Numbered from the stretch's first letter, positions 37,913 through 39,095 are shown. The stretch: DNA of 64,000 nucleotides from Desulfotomaculum sp. (GCA_003513005.1 DOTD01000032.1:4847-68846), one strand, 5' to 3'. Numbers and translations are program-made. The notes: generated from the sequence alone by a model not told the origin.

Positions 37913-38114
37913 TTGCAGTTTTAAAAATTTAAGTTTGAGATATAAAACTGGGCAGCAGTCTCTTTAGAAGGTTAAATGTACCATAAAAAGGAGGATGGGC
38001 AGTTTGGCGGTTGAGGAAGACACTTTGCGTGAAACGTGTTGAGGCCCTGATCCGCAGGAGGAGTTTCCTCCTCTTCCACCCGACACAGAGTGGATCACCG
38101 GATATAAGACTACT

Positions 38115-39095
38115 TTGGCAGGAAAAATCCCGGTTATCTCAACAAAACTTTCCGCAAAGGACATTATGGGTTCCTGGAAAGTACGCTGGGGTATAAACAG
38201 GTTGAACTATAAAGTTCCCCCCGGTCTATACGGGATTGGTGATCCTGTTGAAGATTCCCCGGTACTGGTAACGGCCAATTACAAAATGACTTTTGACCGT
38301 TTGAGAAAAGAGTTATCAGGAGTCAACGCCTGGGTGCTGGTCATCAATACGAGGGGCATCAACGTCTGGTGTTCCGCCGGAAAGGGAACTTTCAGCGCGA
38401 CAGAGATAGCCAGGATGATTGCCATGACTAACCTTTCCTGGATTGTCTCACACCGGACGCTGATTCTGCCGCAGCTAAGCGCTGTAGGAGTGGCTGCCCA
38501 CAGATTGTTAAAAATGTCCGGTTTCAGGGTCGTCTACGGCCCGGTAAGAGCCTGCGATATCCCCGATTTTCTTGGAGCGGGCATGAAAGCTTCTCCTCAA
38601 ATGCGCAGGGTCAACTTTGGTTTTGCAGACAGGCTTGTGCTTATCCCCATGGAACTGTCCAGGATTATCATACCTGTGGTTGCCGTTTACCTTATCATAT
38701 TCATTATAAACCTTCTTAAAATCTGGTCCGTTTCTTTTTTAGCAACACTGCCTTACTTCGGAGCGATTATTACGGGATGCGTATTGACGCCTGCCCTGCT
38801 GCCCTGGATACCGGGCCGCTCTTTTGCCTGGAAGGGGTGGCTGCTTGGGCTGCTCTGGTCCATAGCCGTTGTTTTATACTCTTTTCCGGCCATGCCCTAC
38901 GCCTGGAATAGGACTCTGGTTTATCTTTTTATTTTACCGGCCCTGTCATCTTACCTGGCGGTCAATTTTACCGGCGCAAGCACTTTTACTTCTTTGTCAG
39001 GCGTTCAGCGGGAATTAAGAGTTGCGCTCCCCGCAGCGATATTTTCAGCAGGACTGGGAGTTGTCCTGCTGGTTTTAAATCAGTTTGTTCTGTAA
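38115..39095 (+). CDS. hgcA: mercury methylation corrinoid protein HgcA
   Basis: 326 aa as tracked. Cap-helix motif GINVWCSAGKGTF (literature consensus N(V/I)WC(A/S)(A/G)GK), SPVLVTANYK, and a C-terminal domain of 4-5 TM helices. Followed by hgcB. The N-terminus is uncertain (see finding on UGA 38040). Confidence 0.85.
   Translation: MAGKIPVISTKLSAKDIMGSWKVRWGINRLNYKVPPGLYGIGDPVEDSPVLVTANYKMTFDRLRKELSGVNAWVLVINTRGINVWCSAGKGTFSATEIARMIAMTNLSWIVSHRTLILPQLSAVGVAAHRLLKMSGFRVVYGPVRACDIPDFLGAGMKASPQMRRVNFGFADRLVLIPMELSRIIIPVVAVYLIIFIINLLKIWSVSFLATLPYFGAIITGCVLTPALLPWIPGRSFAWKGWLLGLLWSIAVVLYSFPAMPYAWNRTLVYLFILPALSSYLAVNFTGASTFTSLSGVQRELRVALPAAIFSAGLGVVLLVLNQFVL

Follow-up and report, generated by a model that had tools for sequence, protein, structure and literature searches.

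A probable upstream start and a UGA most likely read as selenocysteine in the hgcA gene of a Desulfotomaculum sp.

HgcA makes methylmercury, a neurotoxin that accumulates in food webs. The hgcA gene considered here lies in a stretch of 64,000 nucleotides (nt) from Desulfotomaculum sp. (GCA_003513005.1 DOTD01000032.1:4847-68846), referred to below as the window, with positions counted from its first letter. HgcA most likely starts 111 bases before the annotated start, TTG 38115, with one UGA read as selenocysteine (Sec). It is held with considerable confidence that this hgcA is a selenoprotein gene and that its translation begins in fact at TTG 38004, with the Shine-Dalgarno (SD) sequence at 37987-37994 serving this codon. 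The following features are concerned, among them a candidate selenocysteine insertion sequence (SECIS) and strands predicted by AlphaFold2 (AF2).

38004..39095, plus strand: full-length hgcA, 363 codons plus stop, with one UGA proposed to be read as Sec at residue 13, a match to NF040863 and coding signatures on both sides of the UGA
37987-37994, plus strand: Shine-Dalgarno sequence AAAGGAGG, 9 nt before TTG 38004
38004..38006, plus strand: proposed true hgcA start, TTG in 7 of 8 close sequences; L113 has an ATG one codon downstream
38037..38042, plus strand: putative Cys-Sec (CU) dipeptide TGT-TGA, motif TCUGP, invariant in 8 distinct close sequences
38043..38090, plus strand: Pro/acid-rich linker GPDPQEEFPPLPPDTE from the Sec to the folded domain, with no in-frame stop or indel in 8 sequences
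38056..38075, plus strand: SECIS-like hairpin, either 7 base pairs (bp) with loop GUU (38056-38072, -9.2 kcal/mol) or, slipped, 8 bp with loop UUUC (38056-38075, -9.9 kcal/mol)
38094..38138, plus strand: predicted beta-hairpin ITGYKTT / GKIPVI, AF2 strands at residues 18-24 and 27-32

It is proposed that translation from TTG 38004 arrives at UGA 38040, where the stem-loop 13 nt past the UGA (38056-38075) would serve as a bacterial SECIS and recruit SelB with GTP and Sec-tRNA(Sec), Sec being inserted in place of termination. The product would have 363 residues, with a 12-residue N-terminal segment up to the Cys-Sec pair (TCUGP), a flexible linker of about 16 residues rich in Pro and acidic residues, and then the corrinoid domain, opening with the beta-hairpin WITGYKTT-LAGKIPVI. 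The Cys-Sec pair would most likely be a very high-affinity two-coordinate ligand of Hg(II), and might catch this ion and offer it to the methyl-corrinoid site, perhaps swapping it with the C-terminal Cys-Cys of HgcB.

Start site, coding constraint and predicted fold

From TTG 38004 through TGA 38040 to TAA 39095, the sequence reads as a single frame interrupted by one UGA. An earlier note, made from the sequence alone, had placed the SD at 37987-37994, possible starts at ATG 37995 and TTG 38004, and the stop at TGA 38040-38042, and direct reading finds each of them there. They are in frame with TTG 38115 (ATG, TTG and TGA at offsets of 120, 111 and 75 nt), and the frame is open back to 37968 save for TGA 38040-38042, as had been claimed, the first upstream stop being TAG 37965-37967. 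The read-through translation is (M)GS-L-AVEEDTLRETC-*-GPDPQEEFPPLPPDTEWITGYKTT-LAGKIPVISTKL, which agrees with the N-terminus (M)AVEEDTLRETC-U-... given in that note, and the predicted tryptic peptide across the UGA is ETC-U-GPDPQEEFPPLPPDTEWITGYK. The 15 nt before TTG 38115 (GGATATAAGACTACT), described as having no purine-rich SD, are indeed without a GGAGG-type SD. The proposal of an upstream start stands for TTG 38004, which is conserved and suitably spaced from the SD, and falls for ATG 37995, which was rejected as a start: no spacer separates it from the SD, and L001, L002, L004, L113 and L115 lack it. TTG 38004 is the better start because the ATG abuts the SD and is confined to the window and the L003 sub-clade.

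The identity of the gene is clear from its core. The product matches the NCBIfam family NF040863 (mercury methylation corrinoid protein) at 443.3 bits against a cutoff of 275, covering profile positions 1-324 of 325. The cap-helix motif N(V/I)WC(A/S)(A/G)GK of HgcA with its corrinoid-ligand Cys, ascribed to Parks et al. 2013, is represented in the translation by GINVWCSAGKG, in which N, V, W, C, A and G are invariant columns of a 46-sequence alignment. Five long helices at residues 194-348 of the AF2 model correspond to the C-terminal membrane domain.

Relatives were gathered by a scan of species-representative genomes, which gave 62 hgcA loci, by contig look-ups, which added more, and by a metagenome scan, which added L087. 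This last pattern scan, with TTGCGNGAAACNTGTTGAGG, returned 50 stretches, one of which was hgcA (L087, same sequence as L002), the rest being chance matches. The close comparison rests on 8 distinct sequences (the window, L117, L001, L002, L003, L004, L113 and L115), with HgcA 72-100% identical, spanning species of several metagenome-assembled genomes (MAGs) and two paralogs of one MAG. The SD-like element, the start codon, AVEED.LRETC, the TGT-TGA and the downstream frame are kept in all eight. At the SD position, all close relatives have GGAGG or GGGGTGA, and farther 5' the sub-clades have unrelated DNA; in L113, the pre-Sec segment is one residue shorter than in the others. It is this conservation of the whole set-up in relatives, and not the hairpin, that takes the arrangement beyond chance.

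Constraint on the protein is seen both before and after the UGA. Among the 12 codons that precede it, five of the seven variable sites are at third positions, and five codon columns change only synonymously while one alters the residue; upstream of the start, the 30 nt vary 8/8/8 by codon position, with no periodicity. In the 24 codons that follow the UGA, there are no indels, and the 8 sequences have no stop in the reading frame, against totals of 2 and 14 in the other two. The pattern GPD.QEE...W-I-T/I-G follows the TGA in frame in the orthologs.

Some variation within the clade is worth recording. L117-L120 are strain variants with an identical 309-amino-acid (aa) core and an ACT to AAT change (Thr to Asn) at residue 7 (window 38022-38024), and this is the only residue of the pre-Sec segment that varies within the clade, being T, N, V or A. 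L003 and L004 are two hgcA copies in one MAG (Firmicutes bacterium UBA4049, on two contigs), both with a Sec-type extension, TCUG(P/S); just past the start of its core, the L004 copy carries NN and a duplicated segment, which looks like an assembly artefact.

Gene decay, in which a nonsense mutation gave the TGA in a former CC-type extension and left a truncated HgcA or none, is hardly credible. One base change, TGT or TGC to TGA, would suffice for it, and MAG data carry errors, but 8 distinct sequences, which come from independent assemblies and samples and include the two UBA4049 paralogs, share the same TGA, purifying selection acts on both sides of it, and the rest of hgcA, together with hgcB, is intact and well above family cutoffs.

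A second alternative, also improbable although less so, takes the segment before the UGA for a leader peptide: a 12-residue upstream open reading frame (ORF), MAVEEDTLRETC, would end at UGA 38040, the hairpin would be a regulatory attenuator or an SD-like element, and HgcA would start at 38115 or 38166. The pre-UGA peptide is conserved as a functional short ORF would be, the 5' arm of the hairpin resembles an SD (AGGAGG), and gene callers and the NCBI annotation do start HgcA at 38115 or 38166 (P0001, P0003, P0004). The core HgcA is identical to a deposited 309-aa 'Desulfotomaculum sp.' MAG protein, P0001, which starts at ATG 38166. Annotations in this clade nonetheless appear to begin too far downstream; P0004, of 326 aa, bears the NCBIfam product name yet is truncated. 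The NF040863 profile would also seem to favor a short protein, as the match begins only at IPVISTKL; this is residue 45 of the extended HgcA, so the profile can neither confirm nor reject an N-terminal extension.

Among the sequences compared, neither annotated start is conserved as a start codon, which speaks against the leader peptide, as does the lack of an SD before 38115: TTG 38115 is CTG in L003 and CTA in L113, and ATG 38166 is replaced by CTG, TTG, ATA or TTA in other relatives. Between the UGA and the conserved W-I-T/I-G, no ATG, GTG or TTG was found in the close sequences, and no start codon lies at SD distance after AGGAGG. The 24 post-UGA codons, open and free of indels, encode the WITG segment, which is internal to the continuous ORFs of Cys-form homologs. 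Orthologs starting at the equivalents of 38115 or 38166 with unrelated upstream sequence were named in the earlier note as an outcome that would refute the upstream start, and the opposite is seen in the close sequences.

The predicted fold points the same way. An AF2 model was made of the exact post-UGA translation with the 46-sequence alignment, residues being numbered from there, and reached a mean predicted local distance difference test (pLDDT) score of 77.8. The linker has pLDDT below 50 for residues 1-5 and averages 51 over residues 1-10, so that its first residues are predicted to be disordered, in line with the flexible Pro/acid-rich tail envisaged from the sequence. Over residues 11-30, which hold the WITG segment, mean pLDDT is 82-93, and the segment is modeled as structured. 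The WITG strand is paired in the model with residues after 38115, a further point against the leader peptide, and TTG 38115 falls in the turn of this confident beta-hairpin; with a start at 38166, none of the hairpin would be left. Judged from the model, the HgcA fold needs residues that are translatable only via read-through of the UGA.

The UGA, its hairpin and the proposed selenocysteine decoding

Whether the UGA stands for Sec can be approached through homologs that have Cys instead. When 14 N-termini are aligned with MAFFT, the U shares a column with the second Cys of the CC in Cys-form HgcA (L114, P0018-P0024, L014 and L040, with P0024 from Pelotomaculum propionicicum), and the same column is CU in the Desulfobacterota-type loci L044, L054 and L057. 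A search of Firmicutes HgcA with long N-termini for CC at this place, suggested when the extension was first noticed, thus found it exactly at the C-UGA position. L114, the nearest sampled relative outside the clade, is a CC form. Across 60 species-level loci, an uninterrupted extension with CC is found in 37, Cys-TGA in 7, a TGA without a preceding Cys in 4, and neither CC nor TGA in 12; in the Sec-form loci, the TGA precedes the common core by 24-29 codons. W-I/V-x-G is conserved within the continuous ORFs of the Cys-form homologs.

Three loci from MAGs of Syntrophales, Holophagae and Sulfomarinibacteraceae (L051, L053 and L056) have an in-frame TGA 25-28 codons before the core with no preceding Cys, the residue pairs being S-U, G-U and T-U, and a stem-loop follows each. 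These HgcA may be Sec forms without a vicinal Cys.

UGA is an ordinary stop in the window, where it ends 12 of 41 long ORFs, and a genetic code with reassigned UGA was ruled out on this ground. A second gene with UGA in place of a Cys codon lies nearby.

42632-41670, minus strand: PF03773 (ArsP_1-type) permease, second candidate selenoprotein, in-frame TGA at 42380-42378, 4 kb downstream of hgcA

Gene callers split this permease into 84 + 198 aa, and its UGA stands in the context TPF-U-SCSAVP. Homologs in L009 and L024 read TPFCSCS and TPFCACG in one continuous ORF, that is, with Cys at the UGA position. Its NCBIfam matches are below cutoff (SaoE, 127 bits versus 325; SO_0444 Cu/Zn efflux, 106 versus 300), and the UGA is followed by a stem-loop with a z-score of -2.1 and a loop, AUUU, without G. 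The presence in the window of a second gene with UGA at a conserved Cys suggests that the organism decodes Sec.

The structure after the hgcA UGA is a plausible SECIS. The hairpin AGGAGGA-GUU-UCCUCCU begins 13 nt past the UGA and places its loop 21-23 nt from that codon, just as had been described, with a perfect 7-bp stem at 38056-38072 and a G/U triloop. A published model of bacterial SECIS elements (bSECISearch) specifies an apical loop of 3-9 nt, an upper stem of 4-16 bp, a G within the first two loop positions, a distance of 16-37 nt from the UGA and a minimum free energy of -7.5 kcal/mol or lower (PMC13188914). The window hairpin fits all of these, with 7 bp, loop GUU, 20 nt from the UGA and -9.2 kcal/mol. 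In relatives, the loops are GGU or GUUC and the energies -5.9 to -8.1 kcal/mol, so that some miss the threshold when the minimal hairpin is taken alone. With the 8-bp register, 94.6% of cells stay paired in relatives, and with the 7-bp register 91.8%; one pair runs GC, GU, AU among them. Stem-loops also follow the UGA in the more distant Sec-form loci L044, L054, L056 and L057, with apical loops 22-28 nt from the UGA. An outer helix found by RNAalifold (38046-38055 with 38090-38101) is almost invariant, hence uninformative, and an Rfam search of 37800-38300 with E up to 10 gave no matching family, only two meaningless matches to long non-coding RNAs. By itself, the hairpin is only slightly out of the ordinary: 2.0% of all 2025 TGA triplets in the window have a perfect hairpin of 7 bp or more downstream, at a distance compatible with a SECIS.

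The idea that HgcA can contain Sec has been published. Haft & Gwadz (bioRxiv 10.1101/2022.07.06.499078; J Bacteriol 205:e00259-22, 2023) described 20 short-annotated HgcA genes that are extendable through one UGA to 363-400 aa, with PCUGP invariant (20/20) and Sec machinery in all the species. They considered most HgcA to be selenoproteins and likened the CU motif to the CC end of HgcB (bioRxiv 10.1101/2022.07.06.499078). HgcA also figures, under NF040863 and with motif CU, in the list of prokaryotic selenoproteins of a 2026 review (PMC13188914), and a 2024 biochemical study in PNAS states that HgcA homologs 'may be selenoproteins', nothing firmer.

The UGA could also be read through without Sec, for example by near-cognate insertion of Trp or Cys stimulated by the hairpin. 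The same coding evidence applies to this explanation, sel genes were not seen in the window, and covariation in the hairpin does not exceed that in shuffles. Against it, the UGA falls exactly at a Cys of the CC metal-binding motif, which is the classic signature of Sec/Cys exchange, another gene 4 kb away has UGA for Cys, HgcA is listed as a selenoprotein family, and Sec machinery is reported in all species of the 20 short-annotated homologs. Leaky decoding would also yield HgcA very inefficiently, and this explanation is given very little credence, below that given to the leader peptide.

Several observations weigh against Sec in this HgcA. No tRNA gene is present in the window, and the 10 large window ORFs tested include no sel gene. 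The 61 nt after the UGA have a fold z-score of only -1.6, 12 of 200 shuffles folding as well, and covariation in the hairpin is indistinguishable from shuffles (7 distinct sequences; 231-500 of 500 reach the observed values). The repetitive purine and pyrimidine arms pair in several registers, almost as well when slid by +3 or -3, and they also encode the conserved QEE / PPL. The motif in the window and in close relatives is TCUGP (TCUGS in L004), not the PCUGP reported as invariant. In the 2024 PNAS study, lysates of E. coli expressing ND132 HgcA with an N-terminal His tag methylated Hg, and UGA and selenocysteine go unmentioned in the description of the construct; from this result, the N-terminal arm may not be essential for catalysis. 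In the literature searched, no experimental confirmation of Sec was found for any HgcA, this gene included.

Neighboring genes and other features of the window

The genes around hgcA and two further features of the window are listed below.

39109..39369, plus strand: hgcB ferredoxin, Cys form, 86 aa, NF040864 at 113 bits (cutoff 99), 14 nt downstream of hgcA
37631..37912, plus strand: ArsR/SmtB-type regulator, NF033788 at 68.9 bits (cutoff 55), directly 5' of hgcA
39419-40027: MddA/ICMT-like methyltransferase, near hgcAB
40111-40767, minus strand: DsbD/CcdA-like membrane protein, near hgcAB
40767-41489, minus strand: possible thioredoxin-like lipoprotein, weak family match
42946-44031, minus strand: SBF/ACR3-type transporter, near hgcAB
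27528-29654: heavy-metal P-type ATPase, metal-related neighbor of hgcAB
9135-9294, plus strand: glmS ribozyme (RF00234, 95 bits), upstream of glmS
11338-12975, plus strand: 545-aa single ORF, a fusion of Vsr mismatch endonuclease (residues 21-136) and Dcm cytosine-5 methyltransferase (residues 169-520)

HgcB has GVGC at the site where its family occasionally has Sec, and its C-terminal end is CC. The same HTH_5 gene lies upstream of hgcA in L113-L120. The sole sigma-70-like promoter near arsR and hgcA is at 37582-37609, and no terminator-like site was found between the two genes; the arsR-type regulator gene is probably co-transcribed with hgcAB. Altogether, hgcAB is set in a neighborhood of metal and thiol-redox genes (window 27528-29654 and 39419-44500), which also holds the PF03773 permease, a Thioredoxin_3 gene and a second ArsR. 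Elsewhere in the window, the mechanically called ORF 9212-11194 overruns the glmS ribozyme, and the GlmS profile match starts at residue 52-53 of this ORF.

Implications and comparison with known systems

If the arm carries Sec, the public HgcA proteins of this clade are truncated (P0001-P0016, 297-346 aa versus the proposed 363 aa), constructs made from the short gene models would be without the likely Hg-capturing ligand, and selenium availability could affect methylation capacity. Such implications have been argued for the whole HgcA family since 2022 and will not surprise a specialist, but they are useful for annotation and for construct design. What the window adds is a Firmicutes-type TCUGP example, clean comparative evidence that both flanks of the UGA are translated, a structural case that the annotated start cuts a beta-hairpin, and a second candidate selenoprotein next door.

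It is possible, though doubtful, that synthesis of HgcA in this clade is obligatorily dependent on selenium and that its conversion from CC to CU was independent of the PCUGP forms of Desulfobacterota. The first part is suggested because there is no conserved start after the UGA, so that only a 12-residue peptide would be made without Sec; the second because L114 and most of the sampled Firmicutes-type loci are CC forms. If true, selenium supply would gate methylmercury production in these organisms.

The hgcA of the window is an unannotated further example of the known Sec-form HgcA and not a discovery, the idea having been published in 2022-2023. It shares with the forms described by Haft & Gwadz a single in-frame UGA upstream of an earlier predicted start, a Cys-Sec pair followed by Gly-Pro, a length of 363 aa within the range 363-400, and the alignment of Sec with a Cys of the CC forms. 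It differs from them in the first residue of the motif, where Pro is replaced by Thr while CUGP is kept; one row of their supplementary alignment reads ETCUGP, and TCUGP is thus best taken as a variant that does not exclude membership. It also has the Firmicutes-type W-I-T-G backbone, and such rows are CC or CCC in the legible text recovered from their supplement by optical character recognition. In addition, the pre-Sec segment is only 12 residues here, and the clade's annotations are still truncated.

Compared with Cys-form HgcA with a Cys-rich N-terminus (P0024; L114/P0017), the likeness lies in the CC, which is 13-19 residues before W-I/V-T-G and in the same column as the CU here, and in the G that follows the CC in many cases. 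These forms have Cys for Sec, usually several CC or CxC clusters and a longer extension, and need no recoding signal. With respect to the bacterial SECIS consensus, the hairpin agrees in its stem of 7-8 bp, its loop of 3-4 nt, its distance of 20-21 nt from the UGA and, in the 7-bp register, a loop that begins with G and then U. It differs in having two registers, which come from the AGGAGGA / UCCUCCU repeats, and in its 8-bp-register loop, which is UUUC without G in the window and GUUC in relatives.

A wider parallel concerns adjacent chalcogen ligands on protein termini or flexible segments in the handling of mercury or organometals, as in the C-terminal CC of HgcB, the CU of SaoL, SaoB and SaoC, and the CU of MerT-family proteins. 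The likeness to HgcB had been drawn in the earlier note, and it fits this locus, where HgcB does end in CC, but it is not new, the same parallel having been made by Haft & Gwadz. The motifs of HgcB, the Sao proteins and the MerT family belong to other proteins and stand at other positions, and it is from sequence that the HgcA arm is likened to them.

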